This document shows positions 3,237 through 52,851 of a stretch of DNA of 64,000 nt, piece after piece. The notes under the pieces are model-generated. The model saw only the letters and a program-made list of their open reading frames with translations, did not search any database and was not told where the DNA came from. The DNA lies in NCBI GenBank assembly GCA_951406725.2, contig OX597824.1:2852001-2916000 (forward strand), given 5' to 3'. Source of the DNA: Octopus vulgaris (taxonomy: Eukaryota). Numbering within the stretch: position 1 is the first letter of the stretch; each line of letters starts with the position of its first letter. The translations under genes were made by a program, and so were the position numbers.

Positions 3237-3431
3237 CGGAACTTTCACTGTTGGCGGTTTCTTTACATCTTCTTTCTTAAGAACGATATCACATTTTTTG
3301 TATATTTCCTTAGGAAGAATAACCAGCTGTGGTCTGGCGCATAAGTTCTCATTCGCATAGTATGCCAAACTGTGAAAGACCATGCAAGAAAGCAGTAGGA
3401 TCTTCCCTCGGAAAACATTCCAGAAGAACAT
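3237..3431 (-). CDS. PEBP4-like gene copy A, coding exon 1 (signal peptide + N-terminal two-Cys segment); exons 2-4 expected left of the window
   Basis: ATG at 3431. Translation MFFWNVFRGKILLLSCMVFHSLA-YYANENLCARPQLVILPKEIYKKCDIVLKKEDVKKPPTVKVP ends at a phase-0 donor CCG|gtaggt. Exon is 195 nt, the same length as in copies B, C and D. Confidence 0.85.
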
Positions 3432-4718: not shown

Positions 4719-5011
4719 TTAGTATAGTAACTGGGCAAAATATGTTAAAATTAAAATAGATAAAGAACTAATTCTCTGGTTGATCAGATCAGAAGCTGTT
4801 GATGCTTCTTCTGCAGTAGGTGATCCTGGTAGAGAAATGGTGTATTGAAAGCTCATTGTATGCTTTATGTTGTTCTCTCTTTCAAAGATAGCCATATCCA
4901 TTCGTCGAGTTGATGCCAGCTTAGGGATGGACGCTATAGCATTGCGTGTATGTGGATACATCAAGAACTGAAAGTGATTGACTCCACCCACCGGAGAAGG
5001 GGGTTTGAAAG
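4719..5011 (-). CDS. PEBP4-like gene copy B, terminal exon 4 with GPI-signal-like tail
   Basis: Polypyrimidine tract + caacag| then (P)FKPPSPVGGVNHFQFLMYPHTRNAIASIPKLASTRRMDMAIFERENNIKHTMSFQYTISLPGSPTAEEASTASDLINQRISSLSILILTYFAQLLY*. Matches the PEBP YxxPxPP..GxHRYQFxxY motif in diverged form. Confidence 0.88.
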
Positions 5012-6951
5012 CTGTTGAAGGGAAAAAGAAAAGAAAAATGATTAGTGGCAGAAATTGAACTTATATAAACATATGCATATCTTATCATTTCTGCTACAAA
5101 AATCGAATGGCCACATCCGAGGTCTGTAACTACAAGACTTACCATCGTAACCCATAATTTCTTTGTATATGGGCTGAAGGTTTATGCTAAAATATTTACA
5201 TTGTCATAAAAACAGTTGAAGTTATCATTTTCACTGAGAAACAGAAATAAATGAATTTTGGTCGAAAGGAATGTTCATATTTGATTTTTGAACGTGGAAA
5301 TTCAGTCTCCCAGACTCAAAACCTATTCATCGACAGTTTCTCTCTATCAATGCTTAAAAAATTTAGGCATTGATGGAAACCTAAACAAAGGTGTTATGGA
5401 TAAAGACAAAATGGCTGGAGAATATTACGTCTGACTTAGAAAAAAATAAAGTAGGCGGATAAGAGTATCCAGTCCGGAGATCTGCAGTATGAGTAATGAT
5501 ACACCAGCATTGGGGATAGTTGACTGGTCTGTAAAGAAAATCCTTTGCAGAGACGTTAAAGCCAGTTGTGACATCAACAGGAAACTTACACAGAAACAGT
5601 GATAGAGACAAACGTGGTCGAGGCTTGAGATCAGTGCAGATGGCGTTCGAATGGCCGTAGACTGTCTCTCTCTCTCTCTCTCTCTCACCTCCTCTCTCTA
5701 CCTCTCTCTCTCTTCCTCTCGCTACCTCTTTTACTCTCTCACTCCCTCTCACTCATTTAATCATTTTCCCTCAGAGTGTTAAACAACAGCAGCAAAAATG
5801 CATGCATAAACCTAGTGCTGAAAGAACGAAGGGGACAATATCCTAGGTGTCGGCAGTAAACCCTTCAGGAAGCACCCACTTCCTGATGATCTCCAGTACA
5901 ACCCGAAGCAGTCGGACTAACATAGTGCAAAGGAAACCCGAATGTGATCCCTTTGCTCTACGCCTTCACTACCGCCATCCATTCATTTCTCTTTGCTCAC
6001 TAGGCACGTCATCTGTTGGTGAAGTATTATTTCTATTTTCTGATTTCCTTTTCATCTCTTCAATTTCCATGTCTGTTAACCACTCTTTGGCTCCTATTGC
6101 ACTTGCCTGCTCACTTATTTCGAAGAGTCCTATTTCATTCACTTTCGCTTTCATTCGTTGTCGGAATCCCCTTCTACTGGGTTCACGCCTGATTCGGCAT
6201 TCAATCACCGTTCGGTTTGCCTCCTCATCCCATCACCTTCTCTGCTTCTGGCTTTGTGTACAAGTAGTCTCCGGATGACGACCGAGCCTGCGCTACTCAA
6301 CCACAAGTTCGCTATCTTTCTTTATTATATCACCAGATATTTAAGGATCTACGCCAACATTTCCTTTTCACTTGTCCGTTGTAATTTGATCCTGGCGATT
6401 GTAGGATCGCTCTCCTTATTCCCCACATTACACGTCTTCTCCCTTCAAAGTATTCGTTCTCGCTTTCTCGTTCTTTTCCCTTTTCATTCTTTCTCCTATC
6501 CCCCTCTTCTTCTCCCTCCTCCTCCACCTTCTTTTCCTTCTACTCTCTTCTTCTCCTCCTCCTACACACACATGCACATACGTACAAAAATATGTGTGTG
6601 TGTGTGTGTGTGTGTGTAGAATATTTGGTGTTTAGTTAATATTTAGCATTCAATCGTCAATAAATCTACTCTGAAAGAATCCTCCTCCTCTCCGCCCAAA
6701 ATAGAATCTGTTGTTACTTCATCGAATAAGCGAAAACTTAATTCTTACACCCTAAACATGTATAATCATAGCATAAAGTCAATGCAGCGGCAACACTAAC
6801 ACCGAACGGGACAGCACATGTAGCACACCCGTAAGACTAACAGTGTAACCAGCGTAAACCAGGATACGAACCACCCCGCGTCCGAGGAAGCCCGGAGTAC
6901 GGCGAAAACGGATGTTAATACTATTAACACTACTACTACTACTACTACTAC

Positions 6952-6984
<33 letters not shown>

Positions 6985-7036
6985 CAACATCGAAAAATAT
7001 CTTAGCAATGAGAACCCAGGTTCGAAATTCCCCCAA

Positions 7037-7081
7037 GACACCTGATGAAGGCTGAGGGTATATCAGTTGAAACGTTGTGTT
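7037..7081 (+). ncRNA. Minimal type-I hammerhead ribozyme motif (Penelope-associated type)
   Basis: GACAC-CTGATGA-a-GGCTGA(gggtata)TCAGTT-GAAA-CG-TT-GTGTT: stem I, intact core, stem II, palindromic minimal stem III and a UH site. Confidence 0.6.
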
Positions 7082-7155
7082 AAAAACAAACAAAATGAGG
7101 GCAAATATCCATCGAATGTAAATAATGTAAATAATGTAGTTAAAATAGTACTTAC

Positions 7156-7204
7156 GTATTGCGTCGCGTGATGCTGGTATTATGCCTTTTAGCAGGGTTG
7201 TGCG
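7156..7204 (-). CDS. PEBP4-like gene copy B, exon 3 (49-nt micro-exon)
   Basis: aatttcag|RTTLLKGIIPASRDAI+C|gtaagt, phase 0-1. Resembles the PEBP4 GADLKKGKIQGQELS segment. Same size and splice sites in copies C and D. Confidence 0.85.
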
Positions 7205-7253
7205 CTGAAATTATAATATATATATATATATATTATGAAATATACTTATGTAT

Positions 7254-7285
<32 letters not shown>

Positions 7286-7429
7286 TGTATGTATGTATGT
7301 ATGTATGTATGTATGTATGTATGTATGCTTTATGCATGCATTTATGTATCTATGTATGTATTAGTAGATTCGTACCTTTTATCCATGTATTCTCAAGCTA
7401 ATAGTTACATATCTAGGCTTGCACATATA

Positions 7430-8406
7430 CAGGTGTAGGACAAAATAGTGGAAACACCTAGCATCATTGCATCATAATTTTGAAATATCTGTTAAACCCC
7501 AAAGACTTCTTTATATTTATGTTTTTTTGTATTTATTATTAGTGTTGCTTAATATTTTTTGCTAAAATTGCTGTTTCTTTTGAGATGTCATCAGAAAAAG
7601 GTAATTGAAATTCATTAAAATGTCAGATGTATCGGACTTTCAAAGAGGCCAAATTGTTGGTGCTCACATGGCAGGCGCTAGCATAACGAAAGCAGCCGAA
7701 ATGTTTGATGTCTCAAAAAGTACTGCCTCGTAAGTAATGACAGCCTTTGAGAAAGAGGAAAAGAACATCCTCGCCGAAACGAAACTCCGGGCGAAAACCA
7801 AATCTTTCAGACTTTATTAATGTTCCGTGAATTGTCAGAATAGCTTTCAAAAGCACAGCTCTTAAAATTACTGCCGAGCTTTATGACCGCCTCGAGAACC
7901 CTGTTTCTACAAAAACCGGATTTCACGCCAGGTCTACAACCAAGAAACCACTACTTTCAAAAACAAATGTTGCAAAGTGTTTAGAGTGGAGTAAAATCCT
8001 ACAGAATTGATCCCTAGAACAGTGGAAGAATGTTACTTTCTCCGACGAATCATCCTTTACCTTATTTCCACCAACCGAGTAGACATGTGGAGACAGCCAA
8101 AATAATCATTTGACCCAAACTGCCATCTTCGAACAGTTAAACATGGAGGAAGATTTCTGATGACCTGGGACGGGACTATATCTTGGAAATCTGCCGGCCT
8201 AATGGTTTCCCTTCAAGTAAAAATTAATACTCAAGACTATTTAAGCATTTTATCTGATCAAATTCATTCTAGTTTCGTGAGGGAAACGCAACTATCAGGA
8301 AGATAATGCATCAATTCACACAGCTAAAGTTGTTACTGAATGACACAATGAACATTCTAGTGAAGTTGAACATCTTATCTGGCCACCACAGTCCCCAGAT
8401 CTCAAT
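7430..8406 (+). mobile_element. Degenerate Tc1-family DNA transposon, 3'-truncated, in intron 2 of copy B
   Basis: TA|CAGGTGTAGGACAAAATA TIR start. Transposase MSDVSDFQRGQIVGA... WKNVTFSDESSF... WPPQSPDLNI with stops and frameshifts. Confidence 0.85.
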
Positions 8407-8434
8407 ATATATATATATATATATATGAGATATA

Positions 8435-8496
<62 letters not shown>

Positions 8497-8511
8497 TGTA
8501 TATATATATAT

Positions 8512-8850
8512 GAGATTGTTGTCAACAGTCACTCCTAGGTCTCTGATATTATCATATGCTGTGAGCGGGTCACCTCTAGAAAGATAATATGGTTGTTTTA
8601 GCATAGTAATTCTTCCAAAGTGCATCAGCTCAGATTATCTCTCGTTTAGTTGCATTTTGTTTTTGTCTGCTCATTGCCGTCCAGCATGTAGATCAGACTG
8701 GAATTCAGTTTGGTCTTCTCCGTTGATAAGTTTATGGAGCTTAGAGTTGTCGGCGAATATTTTCACTTTGCTCTCCGTTATTACGCCTGCAATGTCGTTT
8801 ATATAGACTAGAAACAGAAGCGGGTTCAGGAAACCACTGGTGTTTCTCAA
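8512..8850 (-). mobile_element. CR1-like LINE reverse-transcriptase fragment (paralogous copy 27241-27575)
   Basis: PLLFLVYINDI...VKIFADNSKL (YADD-box variant) and MHFGR...RDLGVTVDNNL. Confidence 0.75.
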
Positions 8851-9216
8851 GGCCCAAATAATTATATACATAAACAAAACATAATAAATTAAATTGAATT
8901 AGATGAATGCAAATCAAAAAAGAAATGAGAAAGTAAGTAGATAAAAACAAATAAATAAATTAAATTAAATTAAATTAAACGAACGTGAATAAACAGGGGA
9001 TACTGATAATGCAGGTTCGATACACGCTGCCTCCCACACACACATACGAATGTGAATGTGTATGCCTGTTTGCTTGTATGCGTGTGTGCATGTGTGTGGT
9101 GCGTTTGAACTTGTGAAATTATCTATGCATTTTGGTGCTAAAATTGACAGTTGCATGCACGAATGCACACATCTGCATAAAAATATACGTTTCATAAAAA
9201 TATCTATCATACTTAC

Positions 9217-9324
9217 ATTGATATGTGTCCTCATCCAATGCGGGTAGACTATATTAGCTTCCTTGTATGCCTCTGGATGAAACAGGCCCAGTAAATAAAA
9301 TTCTGCTTTCAGACTTGCATTTGG
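9217..9324 (-). CDS. PEBP4-like gene copy B, exon 2
   Basis: ttttattag|PNASLKAEFYLLGLFHPEAYKEANIVYPHWMRTHIN|gtaagt, 108 nt, phase 0-0. Aligns to the PEBP YxLxMVDPD...HW segment, with DPD replaced by HPE. Confidence 0.88.
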
Positions 9325-9419
9325 CTAATAAAACACAAAAATGTTTTTTTTTTAATTAGGAGGAATTTATTATATTAAATCATACATACACACACGTGAA
9401 CATATTAGGAATTTGGCAT

Positions 9420-9485
<66 letters not shown>

Positions 9486-9513
9486 TAAATAATTATATAA
9501 CGTAATGTTTTAA

Positions 9514-9551
<38 letters not shown>

Positions 9552-10079
9552 TAGAAGGTTTGGAGATGAAGTACAGGTATTTTAGAAGAAACGAGGTACC
9601 CAGAAATTCGGATGGTTTTGTATTTACAGATATTTATTTGTATATTATATGTTTTTATACATCATATAACTTATATCATATATCCTACATATTAGCGCTT
9701 TCGTCCATTTTGGTGGGGTTTTCAAATTGAACTAAGTTCTTGTGGAACGATTTCGACCATTTTATAGTGTTATTGAGTGTGTATGTATGGTTAAGATGTT
9801 GCTCAGAAGATTTACCAATCCTGATTTCACTTGCTAGATGTTGTGGAGCGTTTTGTTCTTGAGGAGAATATTTCACCTCACGTTACACTGCGATCACTTC
9901 GACACCTGCCACGTGGCACACTGTGACCCTATTCATACAACATCGATTTGAGTAAATGCATGGCACAGAAATATCTTATCTCTATAAACAAATCATTTGT
10001 TCCGGTCGCTCGCCAGAACCCGAATACTCATACGTCGTCTTCAATGGGAAGGCACGCTGGCAAAACACTACTCTTCTAT

Positions 10080-10575
10080 GTTCACTATGAAACGTCCCTG
10101 TTTGAAGGAGAACTGTGATCCCTCAATTAAATTGACGCATATCCTACAGTTAGATTGTCGGCATTTTTTTACTGACGGCTTCAGTGTTGTTGAACGTTTT
10201 CGGGCTTGTGTTAGTAGACTTTTCATAGATTTGGGCTGTCTCTTGCTTTTTATGATGGCGTGTTTGGAGGATTAAATTCATTTTGTGGTCCTTTTTTAGC
10301 AAGGAGGTGTTTTGAAAGATGGTGTTGAAGGCTTCATTGTTAAGAGAGTTGTGTGAGAGAAGATGTATGGTAGGGCTTTTTTGGTTGTAAATCCTTCTTA
10401 AATTTGTTGAGTTGAAGGGCACGTTGAAGCATATGTCAATTAGTGAAGGTGGGTAGTTTCTGGTGATGAGTGTATCATTTAGTTCATATAGGCGTGTGTC
10501 CCTGGTACTTGCATTAGAAACTAATGTTACATATCCTTTGTGTTAGGTTGAAGGGGATATCCATTCTGGCGTGTC
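10080..10575 (-). mobile_element. Penelope-like element fragment
   Basis: Clearly similar to 29930-30440 of the larger Penelope-like copy (NIPFNL...ITRNYPPSLID...LIEGSQFSFKQGRF). Confidence 0.75.
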
Positions 10576-14172: not shown

Positions 14173-14367
14173 CGGAACATTCAATGTTGGCGGTTTCTTT
14201 ACATCAGCTACACTAAGGTCGACATTACATTTTTTGTATATATTCTTAGGAAGAAGAATCAGCTGTGTCCCGGCGCATAAGTTCTCATTCGCATTGTATG
14301 CCAAACTGTGAAAGACCATGCAAGAAAGCAGTAGGATCTTTCCTATGAAAACATTCCAGAAGAACAT
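14173..14367 (-). CDS. PEBP4-like gene copy B, exon 1 of 4 (gene spans 14367-4719; 645-nt CDS, 214 aa, intact)
   Basis: MFFWNVFIGKILLLSCMVFHSLA-YNANENLCAGTQLILLPKNIYKKCNVDLSVADVKKPPTLNVP|gtaggt. Joins in frame to exons 2-4. Confidence 0.9.
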
Positions 14368-20086: not shown

Positions 20087-20269
20087 GGGTAAGGCCGGTT
20101 TATGGGATTACCTTCGGTTTCCCGTCCATAAAGAGCTTAACTTTATGGCGTATTACCAGATCCCAAAATCCTGTCGGCCGGGCCAAAAGGTTTGGGGATC
20201 TGACGATACGCCATAAACCTAAACTCTTTATGGACGAGAAAGCTAAGTTAATGCATAAACCTTCCTCCC

Positions 20270-20270
<1 letters not shown>
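20087..20270. mobile_element. Palindromic MITE-like element in the 3' UTR region of copy C (half copy at 4584-4660 in B)
   Basis: Two ~75-bp imperfect inverted arms (GGTTTATGGGATTACC...CAGATCCCAAAA / TTTGGGGATCTG...GCATAAACC). Confidence 0.7.
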
Positions 20271-20309
<39 letters not shown>

Positions 20310-22119
20310 GTTTCTGTAGATTATTTACGATAGTAACCGGCCAATAGTAATATGTTAAAATTATTATAAACAAAGAACTAATTCTCTGGTTGATCAGATC
20401 AGAAGCGACTGAAACGCTTCTTTTTACAGAAGTAACTTCTGGTTGCGAAATGATGTATTGAAAGCTCATTATGTGCGATACCATGTTCAATTTTTCAAAA
20501 TAAGTAACATTAATTCTTCGAGTTAACGTCAATTGCAGTTTTAAAATGTCAGAATTGCGTGTATGTGGATACCGTAAGAATTAGTATCGATGGCGTCCAG
20601 AAACCGGAGAAGGGTGTTTGTAAGCAGTTGAAGGGAAAAAGAAAAGAAAAATGATTAGTGGCAGAAATTGAATTTATATAAACATATGCATATCTTATCA
20701 TTTCTGCTTCAAAAATCGAATGGCCATATCCGAGGGTCTGCAACTACAAAACTTACCAACGCAACCCATAATTTCTTTGTAGATGGGCTGAAGGTTTATG
20801 CTAAAATATTTACATTGTCATAAAAACAGTTGATGTTAACATTTTCACTGAGAAACAGAAATGGAATTTGGTCGAAAGGAATGTTCATATTTGATTTTTG
20901 AACGTGGAAATTCAGTCTCTCAGACTCAAAACCTGTTCATCAACAGTTTCTCTCTATCAATGCTACAAAAATCTAGGCATTGATGAAAACCTAAACAAAG
21001 GTGTTATGGATAAAGACAAAATGGCTGGAGAATATTACGTCTGACTTAGAAAAAATAAAGTAGGCGGATAAGAGTATCCAGTCCGGAGATCTGCAGTATG
21101 AGTAATGATACACCAGCATTGGGGATAGTTGACTGGTCTGTAAAGAAAATCCTTTGCAGAGACATTAAACAGGACATCAACAGGAAACTTACACAGAAAC
21201 AGTGATAGAGGCAAACGTGGTCGAGGCTTGAGATCAGTGCAGATAGCGTTCGAATGGCCGTAGACTGTCTCTCTCTCTCTCTCTCTCACTCTCTCTCTTC
21301 CTCTTTTACTCTCTCACTCATTTAATCATTTTCCCTCAGAGTGCCCCTGGTAACAACAGCAGCAAAAATGCATGCATAAACCTAGTGCTGAAAGAACGAA
21401 GGGGACAATATCCTAGGTGTCGGCAGTAAACCCTTCAGGAAGCACCCACTTCCTGATGATCTCCAGTACAACCCAAAGCAGTCGGACTAACATACTGCAA
21501 AGTAAACCCGAATGTGATCCCTTTGCTCTACGCCTTCACTACCGCCATCCATTCATTTCTCTTTGCTCACTAGGCACGTCATCTGTTGGTGAAGTATTAT
21601 TTCTATTTTCTGATTTCCCGACTCTAAAACCACATTAAGTGTTCATACAGCATCCGGAGAGAAGAAAAAAGACAAATTAAACTAGCAAAAAAATTACTGG
21701 ATATTTCCAGATCCCGGAATTCTGACTTTGCATAAGAAATGCTTTGCCTCGTCAGTGGAATATACACAGATAGTAACATAAATACACACACACACACATA
21801 TATATATATACATATACATACAACATACGAATACTTACATATACGAACGTATACATACATATATATGCAGGTATGCACACGACCAGTTTAAATTGCTCGC
21901 CTACAACTCCTCGTGCGATATGGTTGAAACTTCACCACAGTAAATACAATGACGAAATAAATATAAGAATTTATATAAATAAGGATAAGATCGTTAATTC
22001 AAATATGTGCCTATATGCATATATATGTATGTATATGTTCGTATACATACATATATATGCACTTCTCTTGCACTCTCCTCTCAAAAAGGTGTAAGCCCTT
22101 TCTATTATTTCGTGTTAAG

Positions 22120-22805: not shown

Positions 22806-24520
22806 CGCTCCCATCCACCCCCAATTCACTGCCAGGGTTGCCAATTACCAGTCCAATGAAACGGCCTGTATTAGTAGACACCACATGTCCGTTCTACTAT
22901 AATCTGTCATCATTTGTTGTCTAAAGTAATCAGAGTAGAAAATATTAGGACCCCACTCGGCCTTATTGTAATAATATAATTATAGTAATAATAATAGTGA
23001 AACTATAGTAGTGAACAAGTAAATAATTAGCCAGATTGATAATTGTGTAGAACGATTAACAGGTGGTGTTTTGAAATCGTTGAGCCGTCAGTGAATAACC
23101 GGCGACCCCACTAAGTTTGTCTGGTGAGGAGGGTAGATTTTCGACACCCTGCGGGATTAAAAACAAAACCCAGCAAAGGGCAGAGGAACGTAGAAGAATC
23201 AGTAGCCATTCCGAAAACGGGTACACAGAAATCGTGAGCCTTGCTTGGCAGTCTAAGAGAAGGAACGCTCTGATTTCAAAACTGGTGTAGATAGGAATCC
23301 TTAATCACAGTTGTGACAATCTGTCTGTGTCCAACGGCTCTATGCCTGAGTTGAAGGCGAATGAACCGTGAATCGGGACTTATCTCCGGCGCAATATCTG
23401 GATGAAGATACGGGACCAACTGATGCTCACCTATCTCCTAGTGAGAATCATGATCATGGTCCTCAACATACAAAATGCGAAGGGAACAGGCCCAACATAT
23501 GGGCAGAAGAGCAGCTCTTGGATGACAATCTTTCTAGAGATGGTGCCTTGATAAAAATACCGGTTGGTGGTTAAAACTATTGTCCTAATTACCTGACAGG
23601 TTGTGCGAATGGGTACAAGTGAAAATGTCATCCCCATAGATCCAGGAACAATGTAGTACCATCAAACTAAAGTTGCAGGAGAGAGTGCAGCCAAAGTGCT
23701 CATTTCTGGATCTGACCCTCCGACTATTCATGGCAGAATTAACAGTCAAATCTATTTAAGCATTTTATCTGATCAAATTCATCCTATGACATAAATGAGG
23801 TTATATATATATAAAATATAAACAAGCAATCCAGAGGCTCTGAGCATATGGTCTATTCTCTTCAGAAATAGAACGAACCATGTGCTCAGAGCCTGAGATT
23901 GCTTGGAGGTACAAAACAAGAAACTATTACCAGCTCGAATCTTTATTCTGTGCACATTCAATGATATTTATCTCTCACTGGATCGTGTTTGTATGGCGTA
24001 GATTTTTGTTTATTTACTTAACGGAACAACAAATTATATTGATAACCTCACGCGTGCCCACGCACGCATGCATGCATATATGTATGTATGTTTGTCTGTA
24101 TGTGTGTATGTATGTATGTGTGTATGTATGTATGTATGTATGTATGTATGTATGTATGTATGTATTATGTATGTATGAGTGTGTACGTATGTATGTGTGT
24201 GTGTGAATGTATTAGTATGTAACACGATTGAGTAACAGTGAAGATAGCACTTACGTATTCCGTCCTTTAATGAGGACGTTATGCCTGATTTCAGTTCTGC
24301 GCGCTGAAATTAGTATGTATGTATGTATGTATGTATTTATGTATGTATGTATGTGTGTATGTATGTATGTATGTATGTATGTTTGTTTGTATGTATGCAT
24401 GTATGTATGCATGTATGTATGTATGTATCTATGTATGTATGTATGTATGTATTAGTAGATTTGTACCTTTTATGCATGTATTCTCAAGCTTATAGTTACA
24501 TATCTAGGCTTGCACATATA

Positions 24521-25603
24521 CAGGTGTAGGACAAAATAGTGGAAACACCTAGCATCATAGCATCATAATTTTGAAATATCTGTTAAACCGTCAAAAGCTT
24601 CTTTATATTTATGTTTTTTTTTATCTATTATTAGTGTTGCTTAATACTTTTCGCTAAAATTGCTGTTTCTTTTCAGATGTCATCAGAGAAAGGTAATTGA
24701 AATTCATTAAAATGACAGATGTATCGGACTTTCAAAGAGGTCAAATTGTTGGTGCTCGTATGGCAGGCGCTAGCGTAACGAAAACAGCCGAAATGTTTGG
24801 TGTATCAAGAAGTACTGCCTCGTAAGTAATGACAGCCTTTGAGAAAGAGGGAAAAACCACATCGTCGAAATAAAACTCCGGAAGAAAACGAAAAATTTTT
24901 GAGATTGGGACCGTCGGACTGTTACGCCAATTCTAGAAAGGATCAGAAAAGTACACATCCCAAAATAACTGCAGAGCTTAATGACCGCCTTGTGAACCCA
25001 GTTTCCACAAAAACTGTCCAGCGGGAGCTGCACAAAGCCGGATTCCTGCGGAGGGCTGCAATCCCAAGACCACTACTTTCAAAAACAAATGTTGCCATGC
25101 GTTTAGAGTGGAGTAGAAACCTACAGAATTGGGCCCTAGAGCAGTGGAAGAATGTTATTTTCTGAGGCGAGTCATCCTTTACCTTATTTCCGCCCACCGA
25201 CCGAGTACACGTTCCAATTATTCGGTGTTGTCTGCTATGTTCTCATTATTGTAAAGAAGGTGGCAAGCTGGCAAAATCGTTTGCACATCAGACAAAATTC
25301 TTAGCGGCATTTTAAATCTCAGTGTAGTCAACTTTGCTTGTCATCCCTTCAGATTCTATGAAAATGTACCAGTTAAATACTAGGGTTGGTATACTTGACT
25401 TGCTCCTCCCCTCAAAAATCACAAACCTTAAGCATTTTATCTGATCAAATTCATCCTATGGCTTCGGAGATGTTTCCGGAGGGAAACGCAATCTTTCGGG
25501 ATGAAAATGCTCCAATTCACACAGCTAAAGTTGTTACTGAATGACACAATGAACATTCTAGTGAAGTTGAACATCTTATCTGGCCACCACAGTCCCCAGA
25601 TCT

Positions 25604-42506: not shown

Positions 42507-42784
42507 TTACAATAGTAATTGGTCAAAATATGTTAAAATTATCAAAAAGAAAGAACTAATCCTCTGGCTGATCAGATCAGAAGCTGTTGAAGCACCTCTT
42601 GCTTCAGTTATAACGTATTGGTAGCTCGATATGTACGTTACACTGTTCTTGACTTCAAAGTCACCGATATGAAATAGTCTAGTATATTCCAGTTGTGGTT
42701 CTATTTTGACAGCATCGAGTATCTGTGGATACAGTAAGAACTGGTAGCGATGGGCTCCAGCGTGCGGATTAGGGGGTTTGTAAG
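42507..42784 (-). CDS. PEBP4-like gene copy D, terminal exon 4 (GxHRY motif, hydrophobic tail)
   Basis: caacag|(P)YKPPNPHAGAHRYQFLLYPQILDAVKIEPQLEYTRLFHIGDFEVKNSVTYISSYQYVITEARGASTASDLISQRISSFFLIILTYFDQLLL*. Not in the ORF track because it has no usable start codon. Confidence 0.92.
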
Positions 42785-47205: not shown

Positions 47206-47254
47206 GTATCACGTCTTTTTTATCTGCTGTTACGCCTGCTTTCAGTTGTGTGGG
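47206..47254 (-). CDS. PEBP4-like gene copy D, exon 3 (49 nt)
   Basis: aatttcag|PTQLKAGVTADKKDVI+C|gtaagt. Confidence 0.87.
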
Positions 47255-48971: not shown

Positions 48972-49079
48972 GGTGATATGTGTCTTTATCCAATGCGAAT
49001 ACACCATATCCGAATGCGGATATTCGTCCGGATCAACCATGAGCAACATATATTTATGTGCTGGCAGAGTTACATTTGC
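48972..49079 (-). CDS. PEBP4-like gene copy D, exon 2 (canonical MVDPD and HW motifs)
   Basis: ttttattag|ANVTLPAHKYMLLMVDPDEYPHSDMVYSHWIKTHIT|gtaagt, 108 nt. YxLxMVDPD is the PEBP family signature. Confidence 0.92.
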
Positions 49080-52656: not shown

Positions 52657-52851
52657 CGGAACTTTCACTGTTGGCGCATCCAGGGCATCTCTTTGAGAAA
52701 CGAAGACATTACAGTTTTTGTATATTTCCTTAGGAAGAAGAATCAGCTGCTTATTGGTGCACAATTTATCATTCGCATCTAATGCCAAACTGTGAAAGAC
52801 CATGCAAGAAAGCAGTAGGATCTTTCCTCGGAAAACATTCCAGAAGAACAT
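52657..52851 (-). CDS. PEBP4-like gene copy D, exon 1 of 4 (gene spans 52851-42507; 630-nt CDS, 209 aa, intact)
   Basis: MFFWNVFRGKILLLSCMVFHSLA-LDANDKLCTNKQLILLPKEIYKNCNVFVSQRDALDAPTVKVP|gtaggt. Confidence 0.9.

Follow-up and report, generated by a model that had tools for sequence, protein, structure and literature searches.

A tandem array of PEBP4-like genes in Octopus vulgaris evolves under positive selection and includes copies with replaced pocket residues

The initial annotation of a 64,000-nt stretch of repeat-rich animal DNA from Octopus vulgaris (G000:C11:2852001-2916000; the window) pointed to three paralogous genes with PEBP motifs, here named B, C and D, and took the ligand pocket to be rewired differently in each of them. 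Genome searches with exons 1, 2 and 4, combined with BLAST over 444 kb of flanking sequence, revealed that the three genes belong to an array of nine tandem four-exon PEBP4-like genes at C11:2.689-2.905 Mb, and codon analysis revealed that this array is under strong positive selection. The window contains B, C, D and exon 1 of c6, and six further copies (c1 to c6) reach to the left of it; c1 and c2 lie on the plus strand and c3, c4, c5, c6, B, C and D on the minus strand. Window coordinates are used below unless C11, C8 or C10 is stated. A Pfam family search of the genome passed over the entire array, its two matches both lying elsewhere.

Gene structures and transcription

All nine genes share identical exon phases and exon lengths of 195, 108, 49 or 52, and 272-293 nt, and eight of them combine GT-AG splice sites with an open frame of 207-215 amino acids (aa). 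Each has a hydrophobic, signal-like N terminus and two Cys residues and ends in a small-residue spacer followed by a hydrophobic tail. The exons found in the window are as follows (residues after the equals sign are those of human PEBP1).

14173..14367, minus strand: B exon 1; ATG, predicted signal peptide, two Cys as in PEBP4, 65 codons; contig joint 9324-14173 (CT..AC) in 4 of 4 runs
9217..9324, minus strand: B exon 2; HPE (H81, P82, E83 = D70, P71, D72) and HW (H94 = H86); covered by X1 record 1 with 0 differences
7156..7204, minus strand: B exon 3, 49 nt; loose contig ends at 5011 read exon 3; contig joint 5011-7156 in 4 of 4 runs
4719..5011, minus strand: B exon 4; GVNHF (N129, H130, F131 = H118, R119, Y120), fast loop after the strand, small-residue spacer, hydrophobic tail (predicted GPI signal), stop
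3237..3431, minus strand: c6 exon 1; c6 reads HPE/HW/GVSHF, its remaining exons lying left of the window
38691..38885, minus strand: C exon 1; 2 nt from exon 1 of the distant c2
31547..31654, minus strand: C exon 2; GPD, HW
24255..24303, minus strand: C exon 3
20248..20624, minus strand: C exon 4, broken; acceptor TG at 20625-20626, TAA at 20583-20581, frameshift near 20344-20348
52657..52851, minus strand: D exon 1; signal peptide, two Cys; matched by a 30-letter loose contig end in X5, X7 and X8 (compared by eye)
48972..49079, minus strand: D exon 2; DPD, HW; Pfam PBP E value 0.01
47206..47254, minus strand: D exon 3
42507..42784, minus strand: D exon 4; GAHRY, hydrophobic tail; Pfam PBP E value 0.0028

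A six-frame motif scan of the window placed all motifs on the minus strand and bore out the motif readings of the initial annotation: HPE (9279-9271), HW (9240-9235) and GVNHF (4985-4971) in exons 2 and 4 of B, GPD (at 31609), HW and GRHRY (at 20598) in C, and DPD (at 49034), HW and GAHRY (at 42758) in D, within exons that have AG/GT ends except at the exon 4 acceptor of C. HW is thus present in all three genes, and the proline of DPDxP is indeed missing from them (DPDEYP in D, GPDEWK in C, HPEAYK in B). Because this proline is also absent from tail-less octopus PEBP4 genes (DPDASP in P0004, DPDANL in P0006), its loss is older than the array. B encodes 214 aa; its frame is open, its splice sites are canonical, and the protein has a predicted signal peptide and a glycosylphosphatidylinositol (GPI)-like tail. 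D is likewise intact (209 aa) and keeps all five pocket residues. C is a pseudogene, since its exon 4 acceptor reads TG instead of AG, a TAA follows straight after GRHRY and its tail is frameshifted, defects that the initial annotation did not mention. The idea that each of the three paralogs had been rewired therefore does not hold, and we rejected C as a third functional rewiring.

Several remnants accompany these genes. The introns of C hold transposon remnants, namely a reverse transcriptase with GIY-YIG (29615-30954, minus strand), which we take to be Penelope-like, and the helix-turn-helix of a Tc3-type transposase (24833-25162, plus strand); similar, unscored transposon-like remnants lie in the introns of B (7600-8400 and 10150-10542). 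Between c4 and c3 lies a duplication remnant, a partial extra exon 4 without its first 23 codons (G000:C11:2785399-2785620; L016:3399-3620, minus strand). Exon 1 of C (38691-38885) differs from the inverted exon 1 of c2 (G000:C11:2718118-2718312) by 2 nt while the cores of the two genes are approximately 35% apart, which suggests a likely recent gene conversion across 170 kb and opposite strands.

The link between these gene models and transcription was examined in public sequencing runs. Eight of the 24 listed runs hold the stretch, none of them recorded as RNA, and the 16 without its words provide no tissue evidence. Contigs from X1, X5, X7 and X8 (two studies) were inspected for exon joints; contig depth, which in X5, X7 and X8 reached thousands in exon bins and stayed below 70 in most intron bins, was not used as an expression level. 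In all four runs, contigs connect 5011 with 7156 and 9324 with 14173, each joint having CT..AC ends, and record 1 of X1 reads exon 4, then a stretch of precisely 49 letters, as long as exon 3, then exon 2. As the contigs join exons at the intron ends, B, or its allele or ortholog in the source organisms of the runs, is transcribed and spliced with HPE intact; intron pieces in X5 differ by approximately 2% from the B locus. The exon 4 differences listed for the contig comprise two silent His changes plus I>V and V>L directly ahead of NHF, with one of the five not located; the N, H and F codons of GVNHF are not among them. Loose contig ends that match exons 1 and 4 of D, compared by eye, suggest that D is expressed too. 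A low-depth contig joint with CT..AT ends, running from the exon 2 acceptor at 9324 to 9675, was also seen in X5 and X8 and may represent a deletion allele or a rarely used alternative exon further upstream.

Probable PEBP4 ancestry, predicted fold and tail

The profile of the family gave 140 matches, 120 of which were listed, and 115 non-octopus ones served as a control; among the matches listed, the non-octopus ones are mostly named PEBP4. Both N-terminal Cys residues occur in 9/9 array genes and fall into the PEBP4 Cys columns in seven of the nine by automatic alignment. Four further relatives were located, three at C8:33.06-33.16 Mb (G000:C8:33058000-33163000) and one at C10:95.77 Mb (C10:95768000-95778000). 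Three of these bear a tail, and one is tail-less with the canonical pocket DPDAN/HW/GIHRY; its public counterpart, P0004, is XP_014771394.1, named PEBP4 isoform X1 by NCBI. A 24-row tree, rooted at the midpoint and containing 10 outgroup rows but no PEBP1, unites the 12 tail-bearing rows in a clade (96/91) adjacent to octopus PEBP4, within an octopus clade (99/97) that includes the NCBI-named PEBP4. One C8 gene, reading ADRRI/ANRRI, has conserved counterparts (P0001, P0002) in two further Octopus species. The public model P0003 fuses two of the four C8 and C10 relatives with an unrelated PF01709 gene and is likely a misannotation. Elsewhere on C11, an exon with a PEBP domain (L019:4806-5114; G000:C11:97744812-97745081, minus strand) is intronless across the motifs and reads DPD..HW..DENPHFY, with R119 and G116 replaced.

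Single exons of the array score poorly against the Pfam PBP family (PF01161): the two D exons listed above fall below the cutoff, as does partial c1 (20 bits against 24), and single exons of B gave no PF01161 match. The full-length relatives P0001, P0002, P0006 and P0009 pass. Among the matches listed, only one partial model, P0008, stands for the public proteins of the nine genes. It agrees with the last 134 aa of c1 at every residue, and its AlphaFold2 model (predicted local distance difference test [pLDDT] of 84.8) has PEBP-family chains as structural matches in all of rows 1-11, the best being FT (Z 9.2, root-mean-square deviation 2.5, 96 residues). In this model the last 134 aa of c1 have the PEBP beta-fold, and the tail forms a separate low-confidence helix (110-133). 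B is approximately 45% identical to c1 and D in exon 4, and would share this fold. The model of P0002 provided by the Atlas has PEBP clusters as matches, with a TM score of 0.59; our AlphaFold2 model of P0002 on a 10-row alignment reached a pLDDT of 51.5 and was not used. Searches with single exons added little: an Atlas search with D exon 4 gave leads only (0.76), a word search that was restricted to longer proteins and used B exon 4 scored 0 of 90 candidates, and an exon 4 alignment search scored 5 of 6979, all of them octopus C8-type genes.

GPI-anchored proteins combine a signal peptide with an omega site of small residues, a spacer and a hydrophobic C-terminal stretch that has no cytoplasmic tail behind it. 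The N termini of the array proteins have a hydropathy of 2.2-2.4, and their last 15 residues reach 1.5-2.0, compared with 0.4-0.7 for the tail-less P0006 and P0004 and a median of −0.37 for the 115 non-octopus matches. By inspection, a GPI-like pattern, A-S-T-A-S, lies approximately 24-28 residues from the end. Judged by these features, the array proteins are likely anchored at the membrane, with GPI as the putative anchor. The spacer and tail stand where a C-terminal pocket helix would follow the last strand, and the DPDxP proline is missing in 9/9 genes. For RKIP, a C-terminal helix with L180, Y181 and L184 is described as closing the pocket (PMC8539980).

Positive selection and replacement of pocket residues

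In pairwise comparisons of the core, the ratio of nonsynonymous to synonymous substitution rates (dN/dS, or omega) exceeded 1 in 34 of 36 pairs. Selection was then estimated with our own code for the GY94 F3x4 model on the eight intact genes and 124 codons. Model M0 gave an omega of 1.77, the likelihood-ratio test (LRT) of M2a against M1a gave 39.8 with 36% of sites at an omega of 3.3, and that of M8 against M8a gave 40.2. With separate exon trees, the LRT was 7.9 for exon 2, 18.1 for exons 2 and 3, 20.4 for the core of exon 4, 14.3 for the mature part of exon 1 and 8.0 for its signal part; with gapped or doubtful columns dropped, it was 27.5. All of these values are significant. The B clade alone yielded an omega of 2.26 (LRT 39.7), and the tail gave no significant sign of selection (LRT 1.6, p 0.45).

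Noncoding sequence provided a neutral yardstick. Because divergence of BLAST-picked intron segments is biased low for distant pairs, these segments were replaced by fixed intron flanks. Over the ten pairs of the five-gene B clade, the flanks differ by 2-6% and four-fold sites by 0-7%, compared with 10-33% at codon position 2. Four chosen pairs were tested, and three of them were strongly accelerated at codon position 2 relative to the flanks: c4-c5 (7/313 in flanks vs 26/113; Fisher p 8e-11), c5-B (18/315 vs 27/114; 9e-7) and c2-D (10/313 vs 28/116; 4e-10). In distant pairs, introns differ by 21-28% and codon position 2 by 29-46%.

These numbers might also arise from relaxed selection or decay after recent duplication, with conversion or model error inflating dN/dS. 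Such a view can point to the pseudogene C, to the partial extra exon 4 between c3 and c4 and to the conflict between the exon 1 and core trees, a discordance that is a sign of gene conversion. However, eight of nine frames have stayed open although codon position 2 has changed by 10-45%, 20 of the 124 core columns are invariant, B is spliced, and both introns and four-fold sites indicate a low neutral rate that replacement sites far exceed. Moreover, neutral simulations, 63 in all, that placed exons 2-3 and exon 4 on different trees never came near the observed statistics, reaching at most an LRT of 7.1 and an omega of 1.10, against 39.1 and 1.77 observed under the same protocol. We regard decay or artifact as very improbable and largely refuted. 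Collectively, the array is under strong positive selection, and the earlier view that B is not decaying stands, its frame being intact and its transcript spliced.

By naive empirical Bayes, 12 of the 124 sites have a posterior of at least 0.95; four lie in the loop after the GxHRY strand, whose mean posterior is 0.66 vs 0.32 elsewhere, and two flank GxH. The latter correspond approximately to P112 and L117 of PEBP1, the P112 equivalence being approximate across a two-residue gap; P112 is listed as a pocket residue in PMC8539980. It is thus in the loops and at rim positions next to the pocket, rather than at the five pocket residues themselves, that change has been fastest.

These five residues are described as near invariant (D69, D71, H85, H117 and R118 in bovine numbering, with D71-R118 forming a salt bridge; PMC10848944). 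Three of the five line the cavity rim, and multiple replacements are mentioned in PMC8793217 only for mL38 and plant PYBHB. In the numbering of human PEBP1, used here, they are D70, D72, H86, H118 and R119, and the array genes carry the following residues in this order.

c1: N D L H R
c2: D D H H R
c3: H E H N H
c4: D D H H R
c5: H E H N R
c6: H E H S H
B: H E H N H
C: G D H H R
D: D D H H R
Other three tail-bearing genes: D T Q H R; D D H R R; S D H Y R

All five residues are kept in 3 of the 12 tail-bearing octopus genes (c2, c4 and D), in the tail-less C8 gene and in 115/115 non-octopus matches, a control (without the fused P0003) that is biased because the search seeds on shared words and so favors motif-keepers, mostly vertebrate PEBP4. 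The pocket is therefore almost invariant outside the octopus genes, as the initial annotation had assumed. Judged by these residues, B, probably PEBP4-like in ancestry and, by the c1 model, in fold, is not a classical PEBP pocket protein, and its state is common to a clade rather than peculiar to B. The position of W84 is a fixed Tyr in 8/8 intact genes, and H86 is kept in 7/8.

The initial annotation had proposed that contacting pairs changed together in B (D70H with H118N, D72E with R119H), leaving a compensated pocket with a new specificity, which we take to mean one for a small molecule or a metal. In favor of this, HxE accompanies N or S at H118 in 4/4 genes, DPD accompanies HR in c4 and D, and the transcript contigs retain HPE and list no change in the N, H and F codons. 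The tree matters here: had c4 branched first, the D70/H118 co-change would be a single event, and if c4 and c5 are sisters, two events or a reversion are required. Without the five pocket codons, the sister topology received a p value of 0.92 in the approximately unbiased (AU) test vs 0.12 for the single-event tree, which is not rejected (0.62 vs 0.43 with these codons included), and the intron tree groups c4 with c5 at 91%. If they are sisters, D70, D72 and H118 flipped jointly twice, in two exons approximately 11 kb apart. However, c5 carries E72 with R119, so that D>E needs no R>H; as a rule for D72/R119, compensation is contradicted, and we rejected an obligatory D72E-R119H coupling. In addition, D70 has changed alone in c1 and C and H118 alone in the C8 ADRRI/ANRRI gene, and the 4/4 co-occurrence stems from a single recent clade, perhaps from one event. 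Compensation between D70 and H118 may nevertheless have occurred. Of the earlier proposal of a compensated new specificity for B, the exclusion of decay holds and pairwise compensation is unproven; we consider the proposal as a whole quite unlikely.

Alternatively, the pocket may have been switched off, the anchored copies serving as protein-binding scaffolds in which only the outer loops are selected and pocket residues drift or hitch-hike, as proposed for mL38. Nine of the 12 tail-bearing genes have lost at least one of the five residues, with lineages differing, and the replacements are diverse (N, H, G or S at D70; N, S, R or Y at H118; L or Q at H86). Pocket codons lie outside the selected class and change at the mean rate of the B clade (1.0 vs 1.0 change per site), and counterparts of the DPDxP proline and of the C-terminal pocket helix of PEBP1 are absent. 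On the other hand, the five genes of the B clade show 5 changes at the five pocket codons vs 1.4 expected from intron divergence (Poisson p 0.015), c2, c4 and D keep all five residues, the Tyr at W84 and H86 are conserved as stated above, and the replacements in B remain polar. This explanation appears somewhat unlikely to us.

Interpretation and comparison with known systems

We give about an even chance to the reading that the tandem genes encode membrane-anchored (predicted GPI) surface proteins diversified by selection for different outside partners, with the B pocket re-tuned as part of this process. It builds on the gene structures, eight of nine intact frames, the splicing of B, dN/dS above 1, pocket loss in most copies and the PEBP fold of c1 in a predicted model. 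The ancestor would have been a secreted, tail-less PEBP4 with a canonical pocket, of the kind still found at C8 and the presumed source of the tail-bearing lineage, which would then have expanded by tandem duplication and exon 1 gene conversion. Freed from the ancestral pocket chemistry, each copy may have altered the surface around the pocket, namely the rim near P112/L117, the loop before the DPD strand, the loop before PxxP-GxHR and the loop after the GxHRY strand, at the place of FT/TFL1 segment B. The B clade would additionally have swapped its pocket floor to H81/E83/H94/N129/H130. Since sustained dN/dS above 1 is typical of co-evolving recognition systems, the partner most likely co-evolves with the gene and could be a microbe or parasite surface or a gamete surface.

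Several observations weigh against this scenario. B is not significantly accelerated relative to its nearest copy, c6 (17/314 in flanks vs 12/121 at codon position 2; Fisher p 0.13), and mosaic histories with conflicting intron splits weaken branch-level statements. The site posteriors come from eight sequences only. The five pocket codons have posteriors of 0.01-0.11 for the dN/dS>1 class over the eight genes (up to 0.48 within the B clade), and because they fall outside this class, the pocket change in the B clade could be a by-product. Finally, the GPI call consists of hydropathy and a pattern, and an ordinary membrane helix at the C terminus would give the same picture.

A bolder version of the surface-recognition scenario, which we consider unlikely, holds that octopus PEBP4 turned into a GPI-anchored recognition array at venom-gene speed, as the third lineage to leave the five-residue center, and that the B clade built a His-rich site (H81, E83, H94, N129 and H130) for a new ligand, perhaps a metal. 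If so, the array would be a natural mutant series for asking whether the canonical center is catalytic. What the PEBP pocket binds or catalyzes has long been an open question, and PMC8793217 reports replacements among the five residues in two groups only. Here, recent paralogs whose introns diverge by 2-6% carry different residues at as many as four of these five positions, and c4, c5, c6 and B offer closely matched intact and altered pockets. Among the open-access main texts listed for this octopus family, we found no paper on it, although transcriptome supplements could name these genes. The array thus represents a cephalopod gene family that is strongly positively selected and for the most part lacks annotation, and it is likely a PEBP4-family variant that serves as a diversifying surface-recognition family.

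The array resembles PEBP4 in its signal peptide, two N-terminal Cys residues, PEBP fold and motif order. However, PEBP4 keeps D, D, H, H and R, whereas the octopus genes are tandem, carry a hydrophobic tail, show dN/dS above 1 and in most copies have lost canonical pocket residues. With mL38 and plant PYBHB they share the replacement of several of the five residues with retention of the PEBP fold (PMC8793217); yeast mL38 is described as having N, C and Q at D69, H85 and H117 (PMC10848944). In contrast to the array, mL38 keeps the D71-R118 salt bridge and is single copy and intracellular; the octopus bridge is changed (E-H in B), and the array is young, likely extracellular and positively selected.

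A further likeness is to FT/TFL1/CEN, FT being the best structural match of the c1 model. The loop that follows the GxHR strand is where differences between the octopus paralogs cluster. This loop aligns to the point where FT segment B starts, a segment whose residue range we assumed in placing the fast loop. Segment B is described as deciding between FT and TFL1 activity (PMC8299281). Unlike the array, these are intracellular plant proteins that keep all five residues. Similar in layout are two starfish proteins, P0012 ("OV-16 antigen-like") and P0089 ("protein D2-like"), which also combine a signal peptide, a PEBP domain and a hydrophobic GPI-like C terminus; they differ in keeping all five pocket residues and fall outside the octopus clade, so that the starfish tail was probably gained separately.

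A toxin role for the array was considered and rejected, the evolutionary pattern being all that speaks for it. That pattern is the one described for snake venom phospholipase A2 (PLA2) genes, in which introns and signal-peptide and flanking DNA are more conserved than mature exons and Ka exceeds Ks (PMC7285919). The likeness to venom PLA2 is one of evolutionary pattern only, and the octopus tail points instead to a membrane anchor.

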